A stretch of 64,000 bases of DNA from Patescibacteria group bacterium (GTDB taxonomy: Bacteria; Patescibacteriota; Patescibacteriia; JBHPGJ01): the NCBI GenBank assembly GCA_042570545.1, contig JBHPGJ010000006.1, positions 1,327 through 65,326 on the forward strand. Reading direction: 5' to 3'. The notes under the pieces are model-generated. The model was not told the DNA's origin. It was given only the letters and a program-made list of their open reading frames with translations, and searched no databases. The position numbers and the translations under genes are program-made. Below, piece by piece: positions 689 through 60,937 of the stretch; positions within the stretch are counted from its first letter, which is position 1; each line of letters begins with the position of its first letter.

Positions 689-1204
689 TTATTCAGTATA
701 AGTAGAGGTGCCGATCACCACGATTGTTTGTCCGCTGTCTTCACCAATGCTTATAGACACTGTACGGTTTCCTTTTTCTGCCCCAATCGAATAGCCTGAT
801 GGTAACTGCATGGATAGCGTTTCACTCCAGCCGTCATTGGCCAGTTTACTGTCATACTCTGCCTTGACTTCATCCATAGATTTATTAGTTTGAATAGACA
901 CCGTATGTGACTGACCCTCGGTTACTGATGTGGCTGAGGTTATGGTGCCATCTACTACGTGTATATCGCTGGGAAAATCATCAGGCAAGCTGACATTTTC
1001 GCCGGCCTGGAAGGTCCCGGCATTGGTATTAAATGTTACGCTGTTGTCATCCAAATCCACCTCAGCCGCACCGTTGGTGGCTCGCTCAATGGAAGATTCG
1101 ATGTTTTCTTCGGCCGCCTCGCGACCTAGTACGCCCCATAGTATTCCGCCAATGGCTAGAACAGCCACGACAACAACTATGGCAATGGTGGTATTTTTGT
1201 TCAT
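689..1204 (-). CDS. hypothetical membrane-anchored/secreted protein (N-terminal hydrophobic anchor)
   Basis: 171-aa ORF; N-terminal TM/signal-anchor IAIVVVVAVLAIGGILWGVL; no recognisable catalytic motif. Confidence 0.5.
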   Translation of the reverse strand: MNKNTTIAIVVVVAVLAIGGILWGVLGREAAEENIESSIERATNGAAEVDLDDNSVTFNTNAGTFQAGENVSLPDDFPSDIHVVDGTITSATSVTEGQSHTVSIQTNKSMDEVKAEYDSKLANDGWSETLSMQLPSGYSIGAEKGNRTVSISIGEDSGQTIVVIGTSTYTE

Positions 1205-1274
1205 ATTATTGTTGCTTAATTATCAGTTCTATATTAATTAAATATCTACTTGGTAAAAAAGGCAAGCGCAATGT

Positions 1275-1811
1275 CTAATCACTAGTAATCGGTGTTCCGT
1301 CACCTAATAAGATTTCCTCTTCTTCATTCAGGCCCTCGCCCAAGGCACGACTGCCATAGCACTTACTGGTGTTAAATAAATCATCCTGTCGAGCGCGTAA
1401 AAATAGTAAATAAGGTGGTTGTCCACTGGCAAAGTGGAGATCGTCCTTAACCTCTAGCATCAATTGTTCCTCACTGCCTTCGGCTGGACTGGCCGCAATG
1501 ATAATTCCATTGTCGGGAATAGCACCCTTATACAACAATGTTGGTGTAATTAATACGTCTGCTCCAGTCTGGCCGGGAATGACGGCAAATACACTTCCGA
1601 TAACAATGATATCAGCATCTAAAATATTTTCATCAACAGTACGATCTGGACAGACTAATTTGCTTTTAAATAAATTCTTTATTGGCGCGTCCAGCAGCAG
1701 CCAAAAAATCCCCAGGATTATAACTATTATAACTGCCCACATAATTACTTTCCGGCGTCGGCCAAACGCTTGTCCACTGAAACTTTTACTGAAGCGGTAT
1801 TGGTCTTCCAT
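1275..1811 (-). CDS. hypothetical membrane-anchored protein
   Basis: 178-aa ORF with N-terminal TM segment VIMWAVIIVIILGIFWLLL. Confidence 0.5.
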   Translation of the reverse strand: MEDQYRFSKSFSGQAFGRRRKVIMWAVIIVIILGIFWLLLDAPIKNLFKSKLVCPDRTVDENILDADIIVIGSVFAVIPGQTGADVLITPTLLYKGAIPDNGIIIAASPAEGSEEQLMLEVKDDLHFASGQPPYLLFLRARQDDLFNTSKCYGSRALGEGLNEEEEILLGDGTPITSD

Positions 1812-12493: not shown

Positions 12494-13546
12494 CTACACA
12501 CTTTTCATCAGTGGCGTCGGAGCTTCGCTGACCAGACAGCGAATACCGGCGTATTTCCAGACCGGAAAGTAACGGATTGGTACTGGTGTCGTGACTACTT
12601 TATCAGCACCGACGATATCGCCGACTAACATCTCCGTTGCCGGATCACCGCTGGTCATCAGTACACGTCCATCGGGAAATTGCACAAGATTCAGCGAATA
12701 GGGAACGGCCAAGCTGTCCGGAGCATGATCGACGATTCCTAACGGGCGCAATCTCTGACGAAGCAGTACGACTGATTCGAACTCCGGCAGTGCGTACCAA
12801 CAAGGAGTCTTGCTTCTCCCGCGCCACTGGATTACGCAGCAGTGCGGATCAGCAATATGGTGCAATCTGCCATCACGGCCACGCAGGAGACAACCGACAC
12901 GGTCAATGTGATCATTGAAGCGTGGCCGATTATCGATGACCTCAGCCGTATACGTCCCCACAACCGGTGACGGATAGAATGCAACATTCAGCTGGTTAAT
13001 CAAGTCTTCGCTAGCTTTAGCTGCACTAACTGAATGTCCTCCCGTTTCCACAATCCTTTCCGATACCAGTACACTTTTACCAGAGTGCAGCACCCTGCCG
13101 CCAATGCCCCAAGGTGAAGAAAATATACGGTAACCGTCTTTTTCCTCGACCAGCAATTCAGCGATCTCCGGATTCACAAGCAACAAATTCGGCAAAACTG
13201 TTGCGAAATCACGCGGGTAAGCTACTGAAGGCGGAAAAAAGCCTTTATCAAACCCGGCCAGCCGGCAGTCTAGTGCTTCAACACAGGCGCCGAGAACTGT
13301 CTTGTCAGCACTATCGGGATGAGAATAAACAATACGAAAGTCAATTCCCATCGACTTCAAGGTATAGATGATCGCCAGGTATTCCTCTTGCAATTTTTTG
13401 AGAACCGTTTGCTTATCCTGCGTTTCCCTCAAAACTGTTTGACAAAGAGCGAGCTGTCCGTATGGAGCCCTAAAACTTTTTCTTGCTTGTTCTTCAGTCT
13501 CCAACAAAGGCTCGCCAACTAAATACAACTGTTCCATCGGTCTCAC
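12494..13546 (-). CDS. amidinotransferase/arginine-deiminase/DDAH (pentein, guanidino-group modifying) superfamily-like protein
   Basis: 350 aa; C-terminal KYAGIRCLVSEA resembles the G-x-x-C-x-[ST] catalytic-Cys segment found near the C-terminus of pentein enzymes; AAGGAGG RBS; motif-level call only. Confidence 0.45.
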   Translation of the reverse strand: MRPMEQLYLVGEPLLETEEQARKSFRAPYGQLALCQTVLRETQDKQTVLKKLQEEYLAIIYTLKSMGIDFRIVYSHPDSADKTVLGACVEALDCRLAGFDKGFFPPSVAYPRDFATVLPNLLLVNPEIAELLVEEKDGYRIFSSPWGIGGRVLHSGKSVLVSERIVETGGHSVSAAKASEDLINQLNVAFYPSPVVGTYTAEVIDNRPRFNDHIDRVGCLLRGRDGRLHHIADPHCCVIQWRGRSKTPCWYALPEFESVVLLRQRLRPLGIVDHAPDSLAVPYSLNLVQFPDGRVLMTSGDPATEMLVGDIVGADKVVTTPVPIRYFPVWKYAGIRCLVSEAPTPLMKSV

Positions 13547-16606: not shown

Positions 16607-16682
16607 TGGCTCCGGGGGCAGGATTCGAACCTGCGATATCCGCGTTAACAGCGCGGCGTTGTACCAACTCAACTACCCCGGA
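16607..16682 (-). tRNA. tRNA-Asn (anticodon GTT), 76 nt with encoded CCA
   Basis: Manual fold: acceptor TCCGGGG/CCCCGGA (U1-A72), D-stem GTTG/CAAC, anticodon stem CCGCG/CGCGG, loop CTGTTAA, T-arm GCAGG-TTCGAAT-CCTGC, discriminator G, CCA. Confidence 0.85.
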
Positions 16683-23454: not shown

Positions 23455-23530
23455 TGGCTCCGCGAGTCGGACTCGAACCGACAACCCACTGGTTAACAGC
23501 CAGTTGCTCTACCAATTGAGCTATCGCGGA
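23455..23530 (-). tRNA. tRNA-Asn (anticodon GTT), second non-identical copy, 76 nt with CCA
   Basis: Manual fold: acceptor TCCGCGA/TCGCGGA, D-arm GCTC-AATTGGTA-GAGC, anticodon stem ACTGG/CCAGT loop CTGTTAA, T-arm GTCGG-TTCGAGT-CCGAC, discriminator G. Confidence 0.85.
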
Positions 23531-57157: not shown

Positions 57158-57694
57158 ATGACAGCAACCAAAGATCCGTTAGAGTTTTACAAGCATTGTC
57201 CCAGATGTGGTGGTGAGTTAACGGTAAAGCCCCATCATGAGGAAAAAGCTAAACTAATATGTCAAAAATGCGGATTTGTATTTCACCAACATCCAACCGC
57301 TGCGGTATTTGCATTAATTACAAACAACCAGGATGAACTACTACTGGTTAAACGACGTTTCCCGCCCCATAAAAACAGTTGGGATGTTCCTGGTGGTTTT
57401 ATTGAAATTGGCGAGGAAGCCGAGAAAGCGGTGATTAGAGAAATCAAGGAAGAAATTAATGTGGTCTTTCGACCAGCTAAAATATTAGGCACCTATCATG
57501 ATTGGTATGAGCATAAAGGTTTGTATTATTCTGTCATCAATATTGGTTTTGTCGGCGATATCAGTGGCCTGCCCAATGCTGGTTCCGACGCTTCAGCTGT
57601 TGACTGGCATTCATTATCAAAATTGCCACTAGAGATTTATTTCAATTATATTACACGATCAATTAATGATCTTATAAAATCAAAAGATACCTAA
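57158..57694 (+). CDS. NUDIX hydrolase with N-terminal zinc ribbon
   Basis: CPRCGG...CQKCG; Nudix box GGFIEIGEEAEKAVIREIKEEINV. Confidence 0.75.
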   Translation: MTATKDPLEFYKHCPRCGGELTVKPHHEEKAKLICQKCGFVFHQHPTAAVFALITNNQDELLLVKRRFPPHKNSWDVPGGFIEIGEEAEKAVIREIKEEINVVFRPAKILGTYHDWYEHKGLYYSVINIGFVGDISGLPNAGSDASAVDWHSLSKLPLEIYFNYITRSINDLIKSKDT

Positions 57695-57713: not shown

Positions 57714-58253
57714 ATGATTAAAATGAAAACTAAATACAACTATTGTCCCATTTGTGGTCACAAACTGGTCTGGCAGCATGAATCTAAACACCACCTAAAA
57801 GAACCTAAAAGACAGCTATGTACTAACTGCCAGTTCGTACTTTATGAAAGCACGGCCTCAACCGTAAGTGCCCTTATACTTAACAATAAAAAAGAAGTTT
57901 TGCTGGCTAAGCGCAATGGCCCGCCCAATCCCGGCTATTGGGATGCTATTGGCGGTTTTCTTGAAGGTGGCGAGCATCCAATTACCGGTCTGAAGAGAGA
58001 AATCAAAGAAGAAATAAACGTCACCCTTAAAGATATTAAGTATTTTAATATCTATATGGATACTTATTATCATCGCCAGCTTACCTCGTATACGATGAAC
58101 ATTTATTTCACCGCTACTATTGCCAGTGGTTCACCAAAAGCATCAAGTGACGTGGCCGGAGTAAAATGGCACTCCTTAAAAAAACTACCAGCCAAGATTG
58201 CTTTTCCCAATGTCAGTAAAGCCTTAAAAGACTTAGTGAAAAAAATTAAATAA
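57714..58253 (+). CDS. NUDIX hydrolase with N-terminal zinc ribbon (paralog of preceding gene)
   Basis: CPICGH...CTNCQF; Nudix box GGFLEGGEHPITGLKREIKEEINV. Confidence 0.75.
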   Translation: MIKMKTKYNYCPICGHKLVWQHESKHHLKEPKRQLCTNCQFVLYESTASTVSALILNNKKEVLLAKRNGPPNPGYWDAIGGFLEGGEHPITGLKREIKEEINVTLKDIKYFNIYMDTYYHRQLTSYTMNIYFTATIASGSPKASSDVAGVKWHSLKKLPAKIAFPNVSKALKDLVKKIK

Positions 58254-59332
58254 TGTCTTTCTCAATCGGCATTGTCGGCCTGCCTAATGTCGGCAAATCA
58301 ACTCTCTTCCAAGCCCTGACCAAGAAACAGGTGGATGTTTCTAATTATCCCTTTGCTACCATTGATCCCAACGTCGGGGTGGTGGCAGTGCCTGACCAGA
58401 GATTAGATAAAATTGCCCAGATAACCAATTCAGCCAAAGCCATGCCAACCACAATAGAATTCCTTGATATTGCTGGTTTAGTAAAAGGCGCTCACAAGGG
58501 CGAAGGCTTGGGCAATCAATTCTTGTCACATATTCGGGAAGTCAAAGCTATTGCTCATGTTATTAGAACGTTTAGCGATCCTGATGTGGTTCATGTGGCC
58601 GGGCAAAGTGAGCCACAAAACGATATAGATACTATAAACATTGAACTGCTTATGGCTGACCTTAAAACGGTACAAAATAAATTGGCTGAAGTAGTGCCTA
58701 AAGCTAATAGTGGCGAAAAAGAAATGCAGGCTTTGTTGCCGGTGTTGGAGAAGGTCGAAGCAGGTTTTAATCAGGGCCAGTTAACTCGTCAGCTGGGTTT
58801 ATCCGATGATGAATTATTGCAAATCAATGATTTAAATTTACTAACCTTAAAGCCAACTATTTACGTGCTCAACGTGGGCGAAGAATACTTCAAAGATCTA
58901 TCTAAAGCGTCAGTACCCGACAGCATCGCTGGCCAGCCGACGGTGCCCATTTCCGCTAAAATTGAAGCTGAGTTGTCTGAGCTGGATGAAGCCGATGCTC
59001 AAGAATATTTAAAAGATCTCCACTTGGAAAAAACCGGCCTAGAAAGACTGATAACTACCAGCTACCAAGCGCTTGATTTAATTACCTTTTTCTCCGCCAA
59101 TCCTAAAGAAGCTCACGCCTGGACAGTAAAACGAGATACTCTTATACCTGAAGCGGCCGGAGTCATACACACCGATTTTCAGACGGGCTTCATCCGAGCC
59201 GATGTAATTAATTGGCAGCAGCTGATATCTGCCGGCTCCGAACAGGCAGCTAAAGAAAAAGGCTTAATCGCAACTGAGGGTAAAGATTATGTCGTTCAAG
59301 ATGGTGATGTAATCTTTATACACGCCAATTAA
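58253..59332 (+). CDS. ychF: redox-regulated ATPase YchF (Obg-family)
   Basis: 359 aa; G1 GIVGLPNVGKST, TGS C-terminal domain. Confidence 0.9.
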   Translation: MSFSIGIVGLPNVGKSTLFQALTKKQVDVSNYPFATIDPNVGVVAVPDQRLDKIAQITNSAKAMPTTIEFLDIAGLVKGAHKGEGLGNQFLSHIREVKAIAHVIRTFSDPDVVHVAGQSEPQNDIDTINIELLMADLKTVQNKLAEVVPKANSGEKEMQALLPVLEKVEAGFNQGQLTRQLGLSDDELLQINDLNLLTLKPTIYVLNVGEEYFKDLSKASVPDSIAGQPTVPISAKIEAELSELDEADAQEYLKDLHLEKTGLERLITTSYQALDLITFFSANPKEAHAWTVKRDTLIPEAAGVIHTDFQTGFIRADVINWQQLISAGSEQAAKEKGLIATEGKDYVVQDGDVIFIHAN

Positions 59333-59371
59333 TAAATTGACTATCGGTAAAATATAAGATAAACTGTCAGT

Positions 59372-59740
59372 GGTTTCTTCAAAATCGCCTGAAAATTGTG
59401 GAGGGTGGTCGTTTAGCATGACATCAATTTCTAATCGATGGTCTCAGTGAAAGGAGAGTATATGAAAGCGCCTCCGCTGCGTCGAGCGGGAAATTGGTTT
59501 TTCTTTACCCTTTTCCTTCCCCGCAGATACTACCACACGCGGTATTGAAAGGAGGTGATCATGTCTATGCAGGGCTAATCACCCTGCCTCATGGGAATAA
59601 AATCCCAAGCCCATGAGCATCGAAAGGAGTGATGCGTTAAACAAAAACAAAGTATTCCCGAGCCTGAAACTGGTCCGGGAGGAGCGTTTACTGGTTTTGA
59701 AGGCTGAGGCCTGCCTCGTGGGGGCCTCTTTTATTTTTAT
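59372..59740 (+). ncRNA. candidate structured ncRNA/small-peptide locus (unclassified) bounded by TTGACT-17-TAAACT promoter and intrinsic terminator
   Basis: About 400-bp convergent intergenic region with higher G+C, several perfect short hairpins, three GAAAGGAG repeats, 28-codon sORF (59462-59548) with strong SD, terminator hairpin 59707-59733 + T-tract. Confidence 0.25.
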
Positions 59741-60937
59741 CTATTTATTAATAAGTATAACGATCTCGCGCCCAACCTGCTGCTGCGGACGGTTATAGAC
59801 TACTGAGTCGCCGTCGTGGTTTAGAAACTCAGCCCAATCAGCCGGAATGATAGGAACGGTCTTAAGTCCGGTTTTGTCATAGAGCTGATCAAGCTTAAGC
59901 TGCTGCCAAATATTATTGAGTTTAATAACCGGCAAGGCTAGTACCATCCGTCCATTGGGACTTAGTAAGCCTTTTAACTTGGGCATGATACGTTCATAAA
60001 ATCCCTCTAGTTCAGATATTATCTCTTTTCTCCTGGCGGTGGTCACTCGCGGTGATAAGGGTGGGCCCAAGTAACCTTCAGTCACTATTCGGTCGAAGGT
60101 ACGATTTAATAACCGACGGCTCAGTTTCATTACATCAGATTGTATTATCTTGGGTTGGGCTGCTTGTGGTCTGATTTCACGGCGGAACCATTCCAGATTC
60201 TTCTGGGCTTTAGCTACCGCTATTTCGTCCATATCAGCGCCCACAACTTCGGCCACGCCAATATCCAAAGCTTCCTGCAGAACAGTGCCGACACCGCAAA
60301 AAGGATCCACTAAGGAATCATTACCCCTGACTTCCGCCAGGTGAATCATTATACGAGCTAGTTTCGGCGGCAGCATACCTGACTTTACTTGTGTTTGCGG
60401 ACGTCCATAATCCTTTTTATTATAAAATTCAAAATCTTGGACTGCCTTTGTCTGCCCCACATAGACCAGGTCACCATCACTAAAAAGACATAATTCCAAA
60501 CCATCGGATATTAATTTGTTCTTAGTCACCACCACCGATGACAACTGTTTTTCTCGACTAGTTACTAGACGACTATTAATGCCTTCACTTTTAAATATTT
60601 TTTTAATATCCAGTCCTTGCCTTTTAGTATCACCTAAAATGCCATCAGTATAGTCGCTCAGGCCAAATAAAAATTTACCTGATTTTTTAACCATTCTTGA
60701 CCAGGGCCAGCTTTTAAGCCAATCAGTAAAATCTTTTTTATCAATTACCGCAATAATATTACCCGCCTTTACTATACCGGCAAGTTGTTGGACGAGCTTT
60801 TCTATCTCCAAAGATCCTCCAGATAACAAGGCAGCCGATCTGGTTTTGGTCCATTGGCCATAGCGTACAACCCTGACCAGCTCACCAACCGACAAAGTGG
60901 GTAGACGGCCAAAAATGAAAAAATAATTAGGCTTCAT
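59741..60937 (-). CDS. THUMP-domain RNA (guanine-N2/adenine-N6 class) methyltransferase-like protein
   Basis: 398 aa; motif I VDPFCGVGTV, class I MTase fold. Confidence 0.65.
   Translation of the reverse strand: MKPNYFFIFGRLPTLSVGELVRVVRYGQWTKTRSAALLSGGSLEIEKLVQQLAGIVKAGNIIAVIDKKDFTDWLKSWPWSRMVKKSGKFLFGLSDYTDGILGDTKRQGLDIKKIFKSEGINSRLVTSREKQLSSVVVTKNKLISDGLELCLFSDGDLVYVGQTKAVQDFEFYNKKDYGRPQTQVKSGMLPPKLARIMIHLAEVRGNDSLVDPFCGVGTVLQEALDIGVAEVVGADMDEIAVAKAQKNLEWFRREIRPQAAQPKIIQSDVMKLSRRLLNRTFDRIVTEGYLGPPLSPRVTTARRKEIISELEGFYERIMPKLKGLLSPNGRMVLALPVIKLNNIWQQLKLDQLYDKTGLKTVPIIPADWAEFLNHDGDSVVYNRPQQQVGREIVILINK

Follow-up and report, generated by a model that had tools for sequence, protein, structure and literature searches.

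A conserved structured RNA locus in Patescibacteria with a 14-nt complement of the 16S rRNA 3′ tail and a possible role in ribosome docking

In attenuators of the erm and cat type, a first SD (SD1) is followed by a short leader ORF and by a second SD (SD2) that the leader masks, and translation of the leader alters the accessibility of SD2. Ribosome-binding sites of the phage T4 gene 38 type are bridged ("split") by hairpins, which are idiosyncratic, while the hibernation proteins RMF and HPF occupy the anti-SD region of the 30S subunit and the mRNA/tRNA channel. The 3′ tail of 16S rRNA is near-universal. The CPR/Patescibacteria account for a large share of bacterial diversity and have a reduced, unusual translation machinery, and to our knowledge almost no regulatory RNAs have been described from them. 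In icaR of S. aureus (PMC3868564) and hbs of B. subtilis (PMC5737220), an intramolecular SD:anti-SD pairing controls ribosome access and RNase action. STAB-SD, a stabiliser in the 5′ region of the cry3A mRNA from Bacillus thuringiensis (Agaisse & Lereclus 1996; reviewed in PMC4113751), is a non-initiating SD that is proposed or shown to bind a 30S subunit via the 16S 3′ end and that blocks 5′-to-3′ decay by RNase J1.

The locus described here, at positions 59333-59740 of the window (the whole 64-kb stretch of Patescibacteria DNA that was analysed), is bounded by a promoter-like site and a terminator and forms a plus-strand transcription unit of its own (Table 1). Its conserved RNA motif is GAAAGGAGGUGAUC(C), hereafter the super-SD, a perfect 14-nt complement of the 16S 3′ tail in its canonical form, which may differ from the tail of these organisms. 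STAB-SD is an SD of the GAAAGGAGG type, and as in STAB-SD the complement of the 16S 3′ end would not direct initiation; in most members of the family it stands without a canonical start codon at initiation distance, the ATG that follows the super-SD at 59561 in the window not being conserved in relatives. STAB-SD consists of nothing more than an SD, located in the 5′ UTR of an mRNA that encodes a protein, whereas the SD of this locus is longer (14-17 nt). Also unlike STAB-SD, the super-SD coincides with the stop codon that ends an upstream ORF, it is accompanied by two further invariant elements, R-UCU-A and a CUAAYNN hairpin, and the CPR units end in a terminator with no protein gene to stabilise; with no downstream gene on the same strand, the locus is not the 5′ UTR of a stabilised mRNA. 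The order of SD1, leader ORF and predicted masked SD2 recalls the erm/cat attenuators, but no regulated gene follows SD2 (a terminator and a convergent gene do), no arrest motif is conserved, and the stop codon coincides with SD2. In icaR and hbs the masked SD lies at the 5′ end and belongs to a real gene, and the masking stretch is a C-rich 3′ UTR, whereas here a 5′ stretch is predicted to mask a gene-less 3′ SD. Two phage loci (L028 and L046), with a hairpin between the super-SD and an SD-less AUG, resemble the T4 gene 38 type; unlike in that type, the hairpin loop and UCUA are invariant across phyla, and no AUG follows in the CPR units. The likeness to RMF and HPF, which are proteins, is one of functional analogy only, in that the super-SD and the adjacent hairpin would occupy the same two places.

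The TTGACT-17-TAAACT promoter and the strong plus-strand terminator of the original prediction are both present, and both have counterparts in relatives (denoted by L numbers). Promoter-like sites occur at the same position in L004 (TTGATT-16-TACAAT) and L003 (TTGACC-16-TACAAT), each the sole promoter-like match of its region, and TTGAYT aligns in 4/4 relatives; the pairs of the terminator stem are retained through compensatory changes in L002-L004. The convergent neighbours, ychF and a methyltransferase gene (59741-60937, minus strand), are as predicted, but the THUMP label given to the latter is not supported, its only Pfam match being to a UPF0020/RMKL-like methyltransferase domain, with no THUMP match at E <= 0.01. 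Likewise, the proposed G+C enrichment is real in direction but slight (0.453 for the locus vs 0.420 for the window). Folding of the plus strand was compared with that of shuffled sequences (z = -2.4, 0/100 shuffles as good) and is stronger than that of the minus strand (z = -1.6). The short perfect hairpins CCGCT/AGCGG, CAGGG/CCCTG and CTCATGGG/CCCATGAG lie where they had been placed.

Table 1. Features of the locus, with positions in the window.
Feature	Position	Strand	Remark or basis
Promoter-like site TTGACT-17-TAAACT	59337-59365	+	Directly 3′ of the ychF stop (59330-59332)
Upstream G-rich SD-like box GGAGGGTGGT	59400-59409	+	Duplex with 16S tail, -15.7 kcal/mol
SD1 GAAAGGAG	59449-59456	+	5 nt ahead of the sORF ATG
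28-codon sORF (MKAPPLRRAGNWFFFTLFLPRRYYHTRY)	59462-59548	+	TGA at 59546-59548 overlaps the super-SD
Anti-SD-like CGCCUCC, sORF codons 3-5	59469-59475	+	Predicted to pair with the super-SD
Hairpin CCGCT/AGCGG	59474-59490	+	Sequence, fold
Super-SD GAAAGGAGGTGATC	59547-59560	+	Exact 14-nt complement of the canonical 16S rRNA 3′ tail
5-codon ORF ATG TCT ATG CAG GGC TAA (MSMQG*)	59561-59578	+	Open reading frame
R-UCU-A element (GTCTA)	59563-59567	+	8 nt after GGAGG, at start-codon position
Hairpin H1, GCAGGG / loop CTAATCA / CCCTGC	59569-59587	+	6-bp stem, covariation
Hairpin H2, CTCATGGG...CCCATGAG	59588-59617	+	Fold, alignment
Third SD-like GAAAGGAG, then ATG CGT TAA	59622-59640	+	Sequence
Local hairpin CCCGAGCC...GGTCCGGG	59657-59679	+	Sequence, fold
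Intrinsic terminator GAGGCC...GGCCTC + T-tract	59706-59738	+	3 nt before the convergent methyltransferase stop

Pairing of the super-SD with the 16S tail is predicted at -25.2 kcal/mol, against a mean of -6.6 kcal/mol for the genes of the window (sd 3.5, n = 50), and the sequence is unique within the window at 0-1 mismatches. It is invariant in the alignment of relatives apart from a GGCGG core in L004; the same core is found in one Streptococcus phage and would mismatch the canonical anti-SD, and L176 (assembly GCA_964415025.1) reads GGGGG. The match to the 16S tail spans 14-17 nt, many members adding a preceding UAG/UGA-AA. GGAGGTGAYC and GGGCTAAY..CCC were fixed by the search pattern from which the family alignment was built, and the consensus is therefore biased at these positions. 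The three copies of GAAAGGAG noted originally begin at 59449, 59547 and 59622 and form a real cluster, since the window holds just four copies on both strands (2.1 expected) and three of them fall within 181 nt; their description as ordinary SDs needs amending for the middle copy, which is instead part of the 14-nt 16S-tail complement and the core of the conserved motif. At the aligned position in L002 the counterpart of the upstream box GGAGGGTGGT reads AGGAGGTGGT, and a second SD-like box 3′ of H1/H2 is found in many relatives, not in all.

Across the family R-UCU-A lies 8-9 nt after GGAGG and forms nearly invariant columns in alignment A2. Neither TCT in the spacer (25/40 metagenome matches, 6.4 expected, ∼4-fold) nor complementarity of the outer 3 bp of H1 (21/40, 2.1 expected, ∼10-fold) was forced by the search pattern, and among 22 unbiased viral cases 11 have ATCT after the super-SD, where chance would give 3%. 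H1, which is rich in G-C pairs, begins 1-3 nt after R-UCU-A and has the invariant loop CUAAYNN. Its stem shows 28 double-change cells in the covariation analysis, a value as high being reached in 0/500 shuffles, and slid controls collapse; its G-U pairs fit the plus strand only, and CM R1 scores it at 61.9 bits as the sole match in the window. H1 is a real RNA helix. H2 shows compensatory changes in L003 and L004 and is missing from L002. The comparative alignment that had been proposed as a check yields covarying helices in a unit that is syntenic in related genomes.

Nine Patescibacteria lineages (the window, L002, L003, L004, L021, L048, L176, L005 and L040) carry the unit close to ychF and the UPF0020 methyltransferase gene, and in Kaiserbacteria it adjoins hisS; the hisS-linked units number five. 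Its neighbouring translation genes across deep CPR lineages are ychF, an rRNA/tRNA-type methyltransferase gene, rpsF-ssb-rpsR-efp and hisS. Most cellular units end in an intrinsic terminator, after which no gene follows. The motif is also found in phage structural operons, at gene junctions or just ahead of terminators, and in phage ORF linkers. In L028 and L046 the next gene encodes a head-tail adaptor and has no SD of its own; the hairpin in front of its AUG is stable, and the outer stem could shorten the distance to the super-SD. Some phage instances such as these may simply be unusual ribosome-binding sites of the next gene. BLAST of the consensus against 50,697 phage records matched only the first half of the motif, in 9NA-like and Javan443 phages; the annotated start of gp42 in 9NA is probably wrong, and for this reason gp42 is not taken as evidence for a split ribosome-binding site. 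Viral scans were noisy, many matches being ordinary ribosome-binding sites with 'ATG TCT A' or coding sequence (the 'RKEVI' and '(E/K)GGDP' families). A scan of genome contigs with YchF yielded one distant Brevinema locus, from which the element is absent, and an exact-sequence look-up of the window's YchF gave no match.

The original prediction had also allowed for a small-peptide locus, with a 28-codon sORF whose stop overlaps the SD of a 5-codon sORF. Both ORFs are present as placed, and comparable arrangements recur: the ORF end falls within -12..+8 nt of GGAGG in 32/35 family members examined, and a strong SD1 and start codon precede the super-SD in 26/35. It might be supposed that an ordinary mRNA for small proteins is present, with the sORF peptide or peptides as its product, or what is left of a translationally coupled operon junction; the super-SD would then recruit ribosomes to a downstream cistron that is tiny (MSMQG*), non-canonical or lost. 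The conserved architecture of SD1, AUG and ORF would suit this, coupled genes normally have a stop codon inside or beside the next SD, the peptides of the window and L004 share RAGxWF with three synonymous differences, and in L028 and L046 the outer stem could bring the super-SD near the AUG of the SD-less adaptor gene. The peptides themselves argue otherwise. An upstream ORF is always present, but these ORFs range from 4 to 100+ aa with sequences unrelated between lineages, and those that share a single location, flanked by hisS and the bPH_2 gene, encode 4, 31, 39 and 100 aa without relationship; no candidate peptide matched a Pfam family. Nucleotides conserved within the sORF fall in different reading frames in L003 and the window in the alignment, and the frame 3′ of the super-SD likewise differs between the two. 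At start-codon distance from the super-SD the codon is AUG, GUG or UUG in about 3/14 members read, and a canonical start is absent there in most members, viral cases included. The terminator without a gene in most cellular units also speaks against a cistron, as does the RNA-structural nature of the conserved positions (a covarying stem and an invariant loop). A mini-ORF of the form X-UCU-NNN-NNG-GGC-UAA ('X-S-x-x-G*') was considered and rejected, X being a start codon in only ∼3/14 and several members breaking frame; its fixed frame follows from the fixed spacing. As judged by sequence comparison, the conserved part of the locus is the RNA motif and the peptide is not conserved, and an mRNA for a small protein is an unlikely explanation. 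The small-peptide proposal is therefore not upheld, and conservation as protein-coding sequence in relatives, which the original prediction had named as its counter-case, was not found among these unrelated peptides.

More improbable is a trans-acting sRNA or a sponge for a protein (CsrA-like or other), whose repeated GGAG boxes and two 'CUA' elements would bind such a protein or pair with target mRNAs; the 16S complementarity would then be incidental or only stabilising. Such a role would fit the five GGAG-containing boxes in 380 nt of the window locus and the four GGAGGUG copies of L002, the invariant single-stranded UCUA and CUAAYNN, which resemble recognition sequences, and a single-copy unit with its own promoter and terminator. 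However, a CsrA site is far shorter than the conserved box, in which each of 14-17 nt fits the 16S tail, the GGAG boxes of the locus are in predicted stems or single strands rather than in the hairpin loops where a Csr/Rsm sponge presents multiple GGA motifs, their number among relatives varies from 1 to 5 (0-4 extra boxes), and neither a partner protein nor a target has been identified. A protein or another RNA could be the true ligand of the invariant R-UCU-A and CUAAYNN.

A type I toxin-antitoxin-like locus, as also suggested originally, in which a 28-aa Phe-rich membrane toxin would be made from an mRNA controlled by its structure and an antisense RNA, is very improbable: the mRNA is highly structured, the small ORF encodes a hydrophobic patch (NWFFFTLFL) and the window has a weak minus-strand promoter-like site (59485-59457), but a hydrophobic run of nine residues cannot span a membrane as a helix, relatives have peptides that are mostly basic or hydrophilic and in some cases just 4-17 aa long, so that no small hydrophobic transmembrane peptide is conserved, no minus-strand promoter was found in L003 or L004 and no minus-strand terminator in the window, L003 or L004, and vertical conservation of a single copy at a housekeeping locus across deep lineages is unlike typical modules. 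Next to no weight can be given to a highly divergent known RNA (6S, tmRNA, RNase P, SRP, riboswitch or ribosomal-protein leader) missed by Rfam in the CPR, where RNAs are often divergent and where this one is single-copy, conserved and structured, since Rfam with permissive filters (E <= 10) returned nothing better than E = 1.5 on 59250-59800 (551 nt; the best match was to preQ1-II, 19.3 bits vs a threshold of 47, driven by the SD only), 20 related loci gave nothing at the motif, there is no tRNA-like domain, and a combination of sORF, SD boxes and short hairpins is unlike the 6S rod or the conserved regions of RNase P; a leader or riboswitch is ruled out because the downstream gene is convergent. 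At the gathering threshold Rfam 15 found only three tRNAs in the whole window, all elsewhere, and ARAGORN found four tRNAs and no tmRNA there, in agreement with the earlier failure to recognise RNase P, tmRNA, SRP or 6S signatures by eye. The locus is a conserved structured RNA that is absent from Rfam, and its first description as an unclassified structured ncRNA-like locus holds, given the empty searches, the synteny and the covarying helices.

The interpretation tentatively preferred here, to which we give slightly less than an even chance, is that a structured RNA of ∼370 nt is the product of this locus, which would act as an autonomous gene on the plus strand; the functional core would be a composite ribosome-docking element and not a peptide. 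The helix predicted to mask the super-SD is part of the MFE fold, was found independently by RNAalifold, and shows a compensatory U-A to G-C change in L004. In eight units of the sORF type, the segment predicted to pair best with the super-SD starts from the AUG of the sORF; in L005, L040 and L077 its sequence is AUGAU(U)CACCUU, which mimics the 16S 3′ end. When tested by RNAduplex against shuffles, masking was significant only in the window (p = 0.06), L005, L040 and L044; masking throughout the family was rejected on this ground, and we regard the predicted pairing of the super-SD with an upstream anti-SD as a feature of certain clades only.

Other pairings were considered. The 5′-3′ closing helix CUUCAAAAUC/GGUUUUGAAG of the window MFE was dropped, as it was not significant in the duplex test against shuffles, and so was a fold-back of CCUU(A)UCUA on UAGAAAGG, which is available in some members only, fails in the window and L028, and shows no covariation. 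By eye, L003 and L004 have complementary 5′-3′ pairs of their own. UCUA and CUAAUCC may be complementary to the 790 loop of 16S rRNA, which is universally conserved. Pairing with this loop is speculation; half of the H1 loops have C at position Y and modules with only the first half of the motif read AUCU(C/G), both of which count against it, and with so much sequence examined, chance alone would produce an 11-nt match like that of L054.

From its sequence features, we infer that the locus may be an elaborate and autonomous relative of STAB-SD that docks ribosomes or 30S subunits, with translation of the sORF unmasking the super-SD or loading ribosomes. Translation of a short ORF, whose sequence is arbitrary, would be driven by a strong SD1 and AUG. 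While the RNA is at rest, its super-SD would be paired with the anti-SD-like stretch at the 5′ end of the sORF, and ribosomes translating the sORF would open this helix and terminate atop the super-SD, which would then bind a post-termination or free 30S subunit, capturing it through an SD:anti-SD duplex of 13-17 bp. Lacking a start codon and facing a stable hairpin at the mRNA entry side, the captured subunit would be held non-productively, and the outcome would be a 30S subunit or ribosome parked at the 3′ part of the RNA. The minimum effect would be a STAB-SD-like protection of the RNA from 5′-to-3′ decay, and a further role might lie in sequestering or sensing ribosomes. In phage operons the element would presumably dock ribosomes in the same way, to serve neighbouring cistrons or to stabilise the mRNA. 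Docking would lead one to expect GGAGGUGAUCC to be fixed and to have no covarying internal partner.

A bolder version of docking, which appears doubtful, is that Patescibacteria have conserved, and phages have borrowed, a ribosome trap made of RNA, in which a throw-away sORF would deliver ribosomes to a maximal anti-SD complement. Here RUC, a start-codon look-alike at the P-site position, would lock the captured 30S subunit, and H1, which resembles an anticodon stem in its G-C pairs and 7-nt C-U-N-N-N-N-N loop, would lie in or at the decoding channel. If true, such a trap would do as an RNA what hibernation or anti-association factors do, or would sense the supply of free ribosomes; if the 790-loop complementarity held, the RNA could clamp the 30S platform at two sites.

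If the invariant core is truly a complement of the full anti-SD tail joined to two further elements, the locus would represent a new kind of ribosome-directed RNA, and docking would also account for the recurrence of the signature in phage structural operons and ORF linkers. If it is only an elaborate mRNA stabiliser, it would still carry the STAB-SD principle into a phylum and an architecture that are new for it, and would also provide a compact, possibly portable ribosome-docking module.

The prediction of an unclassified ncRNA between ychF and the convergent methyltransferase gene was checked against Rfam 15, and no match was found in the region at the gathering threshold. Permissive filters gave chance-level matches only (the best, preQ1-II, scored 19 bits where 47 are required), and no tmRNA was found by ARAGORN. 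The locus is a real, conserved RNA element absent from Rfam. The plus-strand promoter and terminator, the named short hairpins, the three copies of GAAAGGAG and the 28-codon sORF of the original prediction were all found in place (see table); three of the window's four GAAAGGAG copies (64 kb, both strands counted) fall in this region. Compared with shuffles, folding of the plus strand is more stable (z = -2.4), and the effect is weaker for the minus strand (z = -1.6). G+C content is raised as proposed, only slightly (0.453 vs 0.420). Of the flanking genes, ychF was confirmed by Pfam matches to YchF-GTPase_C and MMR_HSR1, its product being 69% identical to the nearest relative; a protein recorded at NCBI under 'Patescibacteria group bacterium' is 100% identical to it, and the organism is a Patescibacteria (CPR) bacterium. 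The methyltransferase matches UPF0020/RMKL-like and generic methyltransferase domains only; its former THUMP label found no Pfam match at E <= 0.01 in the N-terminal ~180 aa. The window also holds two tandem Zn-ribbon Nudix genes upstream of ychF and two tRNA-Asn(GTT) genes ~7 kb apart.

Positions of features in the window and, where a locus is named, on related contigs
Feature	Positions	Strand	Remark
Promoter-like TTGACT-17-TAAACT	59337-59365	+	sequence
GAAAGGAG copies	59449, 59547, 59622	+	sequence
28-codon sORF	59462-59548	+	TGA overlaps second GAAAGGAG
Super-SD	59547-59560	+	
Hairpin H1	59569-59587	+	
Terminator	59706-59738	+	sequence
Methyltransferase gene	59741-60937	-	
Nudix genes	57158-57694, 57714-58253		
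tRNA-Asn(GTT) genes	16607-16682, 23455-23530	-	
348-aa ORF	start near 13537	-	
Kaiserbacteria elements between hisS and bPH_2	L275-L282 1246-1500; L283 995-1500	-	
Hydrophobic ORF after ychF	L007 4060-4240; L174 3568-3705; L175 1131-1268		
Candidate extra ORF	L176 3586-3771; L005 2795-2920		
Motif before head-tail adaptor gene	L028 4768-4830; L046 546-605		
Salmonella phage 9NA (L177, NC_025443)	1205-1400		gap after gp41
Streptococcus phage Javan443 (L178, MK448760)	1200-1258		

Contigs of relatives were obtained through YchF homologues. Three of them (L002, L003, L004) repeat the order ychF, a 357-537 bp gap, the convergent methyltransferase gene and rpsF-ssb-rpsR-efp. The gaps proved alignable, the strongest block being GAAAGGAGGTGATC(C), 5-9 nt ending in TCTA, and then the hairpin GCAGGG-CTAATCN-CCCTGC (H1). 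A second hairpin 3′ of H1 shows compensatory changes (CATGGG/CCCATG, CTTGAGA/TCTCAAG, CTTGGGA/TCCCAGG) and is followed by a second, GAAAGGAG-like box, and the terminator stems likewise stay paired through compensatory changes. The promoter-like sites of L003 and L004 lie at the same position as that of the window, and neither region has any other; the minus strand there gave none. With L021, L048, L176, L005 (= L012) and L040, the element accompanies ychF and the methyltransferase gene in nine lineages in all, at YchF identities of ~55-69%. It is missing after ychF in other CPR clades (L007, L174/L175, L006); nothing takes its place in L006, and a conserved hydrophobic ORF of 45-58 aa (M..D..KLKI.F...I...) replaces it in L007, L174 and L175.

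The canonical single-stranded 16S rRNA 3′ tail reads …GAUCACCUCCUUUC…, and GAAAGGAGGUGAUC is the exact complement of this canonical tail; the organism's own rRNA lies outside the window. The best duplex of the super-SD with it reaches -25.2 kcal/mol with a longest exact complement of 14 nt, against a mean of -6.6 kcal/mol (sd 3.5) and mostly 3-5 nt for 50 ORFs of at least 150 aa from the whole window. In many members the complementarity continues on both sides, through a UAG or UGA 5′ of the box and a C 3′ of it. Since SDs are weak in the ordinary genes here, and the super-SD is this strong and occurs once in the window, it is not an ordinary RBS. The one exception to the weak SDs is a 348-aa ORF with a 10-nt SD, AAGGAGGTGA. 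At start-codon distance 3′ of the super-SD stands a conserved sequence, R-UCU-A, that is no start codon; among 26 sequences UCU is preceded 14 times by A, 10 times by G, twice by U and never by C, so the conserved triplet is RUC. Viral super-SDs without start codon and without open frame were sampled free of bias, and ATCT follows within 9 nt in 11/22 of them, against a chance rate of 3%, and several of these cases lead directly into an intrinsic terminator.

A scan of metagenome contigs with the pattern GGAGGTGAYC-N6-32-GGGCTAAYNNCCC returned 45 loci, 40 of them unique, among which features unforced by the pattern were strongly enriched: all 3 bp outside the forced GGG/CCC were complementary in 21 (2.1 expected by chance), TCT occurred in the spacer in 25 (6.4 expected), and the two coincided in 19. 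In the core alignment of 26 sequences (A2), GGAGGUGAUC is invariant, with C as the usual next base, R-UCU-(A>G) is nearly invariant 6-13 nt (mode 8-9) 3′ of GGAGG, and a 6-bp stem carries the loop C-U-A-A-Y-N-N. The H1 stem has 28 double-change cells, a number reached by 0/500 shuffles, and its G-U pairs are compatible with the plus strand only. Its paired fraction drops from 97% to about 55% in slid controls, this percentage being biased because at least 5/6 stem pairs were demanded of members; the outer-pair covariation is unbiased. Searched with a covariance model of the core, the window yields a single site, which scores 61.9 bits. Neighbouring genes show the cellular instances to be patescibacterial. 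The HisS adjoining L042 shares 77-86% identity with Kaiserbacteria/Paceibacterota HisRS, and in this Kaiserbacteria clade (L042, L025, L023 (= L283), L037) the element is flanked by the divergent hisS on one side and a convergent bPH_2 membrane-protein gene on the other. L275-L282 keep the sORF, super-SD and terminator and have lost the CUAAY hairpin.

An ORF ends within -12 to +8 nt of GGAGG in 32/35 members, its stop lying just 5′ of the box or being the UGA within GGAGGUGA; 26 of the 32 carry their own SD-like sequence. The encoded peptides are unrelated, range from 4 aa (L042, MKKV) to >100 aa, and match no Pfam family; at one identical genomic position in Kaiserbacteria they measure 4, 31, 39 and 100 aa. 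In L275-L282/L283 the ORF of one lineage encodes 31 aa and that of another 100 Zn-ribbon-like aa (CFRCG..HCG), both stopping at the super-SD's internal UGA. RAGxWF is common to the window and L004 peptides, and the GGAAAYUG nucleotides behind it are also kept in L003 in a different frame. From these comparisons we conclude that ORF translation would matter and the ORF product would not; the small-peptide, type I toxin-like reading of the locus was not upheld. A candidate extra ORF 5′ of the sORF (40-61 aa, very basic, low-complexity (..KNG..), own SD) was seen in L176 and L005.

In the window's MFE fold, CGCCUCC (sORF codons 3-5) pairs with the super-SD, and RNAalifold independently predicted the same helix from the four closest sequences. 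L004, whose SD core is GGCGG, shows a U-A to G-C compensation in this helix. In eight sORF-type units the best super-SD duplex partner starts with the UG of the start codon of the sORF. The sORFs of L005, L040 and viral locus L077 open with AUGAU(U)CACCUU, which mimics the 16S 3′ end. These predicted folds make masking of the super-SD by the sORF 5′ end likely in the window's clade; across the whole family masking is not statistically significant.

The full motif occurs in 6/120 IMG/VR loci selected solely for 'AAGGAGGTGATCC..TCTA'. In phage structural modules it is flanked by a phrog_12102 gene and a head-tail adaptor gene (L028, L046) or stands 5′ of a scaffold/protease-like gene (L026). The adaptor gene lacks its own SD, and an outer stem around the CUAAY hairpin (CCAGU/ACUGG in L028, GAUCCAG/CUGGAUC in L046) would place the super-SD within about 8-14 nt of its AUG. 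Super-SD and ATCTA also occur inside long IMG/VR phage ORFs, in the linker '(E/K)GGDP..' at the AAGGAGGTGATCC site (L068, L172, L149, L090, L242, L261, L215). Since the frame in which homologous proteins keep ATCTA varies (GCA TCT ACC vs GAT CTA GCC or AAT CTA), a nucleotide-level constraint within the coding sequence is suggested. Phage 9NA carries the super-SD and CCUUAUCUU after gp41. The annotated GTG start of gp42 lacks an SD and is probably too far upstream, because the PHROG 21889 match begins only at residue 46; if so, about 190 nt there would be non-coding. In Javan443, GAAAGGCGGTGATCCTTATCTAACCTTATCTTAG lies directly 3′ of a small membrane ORF and 5′ of the portal gene's true RBS, with the GGCGG core variant of CPR locus L004 and CCTTATCT tandemly duplicated.

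The main alternative, an ordinary small-protein mRNA or a degenerate coupled-operon mRNA, fits both the placement of a stop next to an SD and the phage junctions; it is nevertheless unlikely, and it leaves unaccounted for the invariance of both the non-start sequence and the loop, the terminator 3′ of the element and the unrelated peptides. A trans-acting sRNA or protein sponge is more doubtful still, and both a type I toxin locus and a divergent copy of a known RNA are very unlikely.

The unit is autonomous, conserved, structured and plus-strand, joins an outlier full-length anti-SD complement to an ORF stop, R-UCU-A and a covarying hairpin, and has neither a conserved peptide nor a downstream gene. 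Most probably, judging from these sequence features, it is a putative ribosome-docking RNA. The nearest documented precedent is STAB-SD, a non-initiating SD that blocks RNase J1 and whose contact with the 30S subunit is made by pairing to the 3′ end of 16S rRNA (PMC4113751). Unlike STAB-SD, the element sits 3′ of an ORF and 5′ of a terminator, its SD is longer, it has two additional invariant elements and, in CPR, it has no protein gene to stabilise. As a ribosome-docking RNA, it would have its super-SD opened by ribosomes translating the sORF, which would terminate on top of it; a 30S subunit would next be caught by the very long SD:anti-SD helix and may be held there in the absence of any start codon, H1 being placed on the side where mRNA enters.
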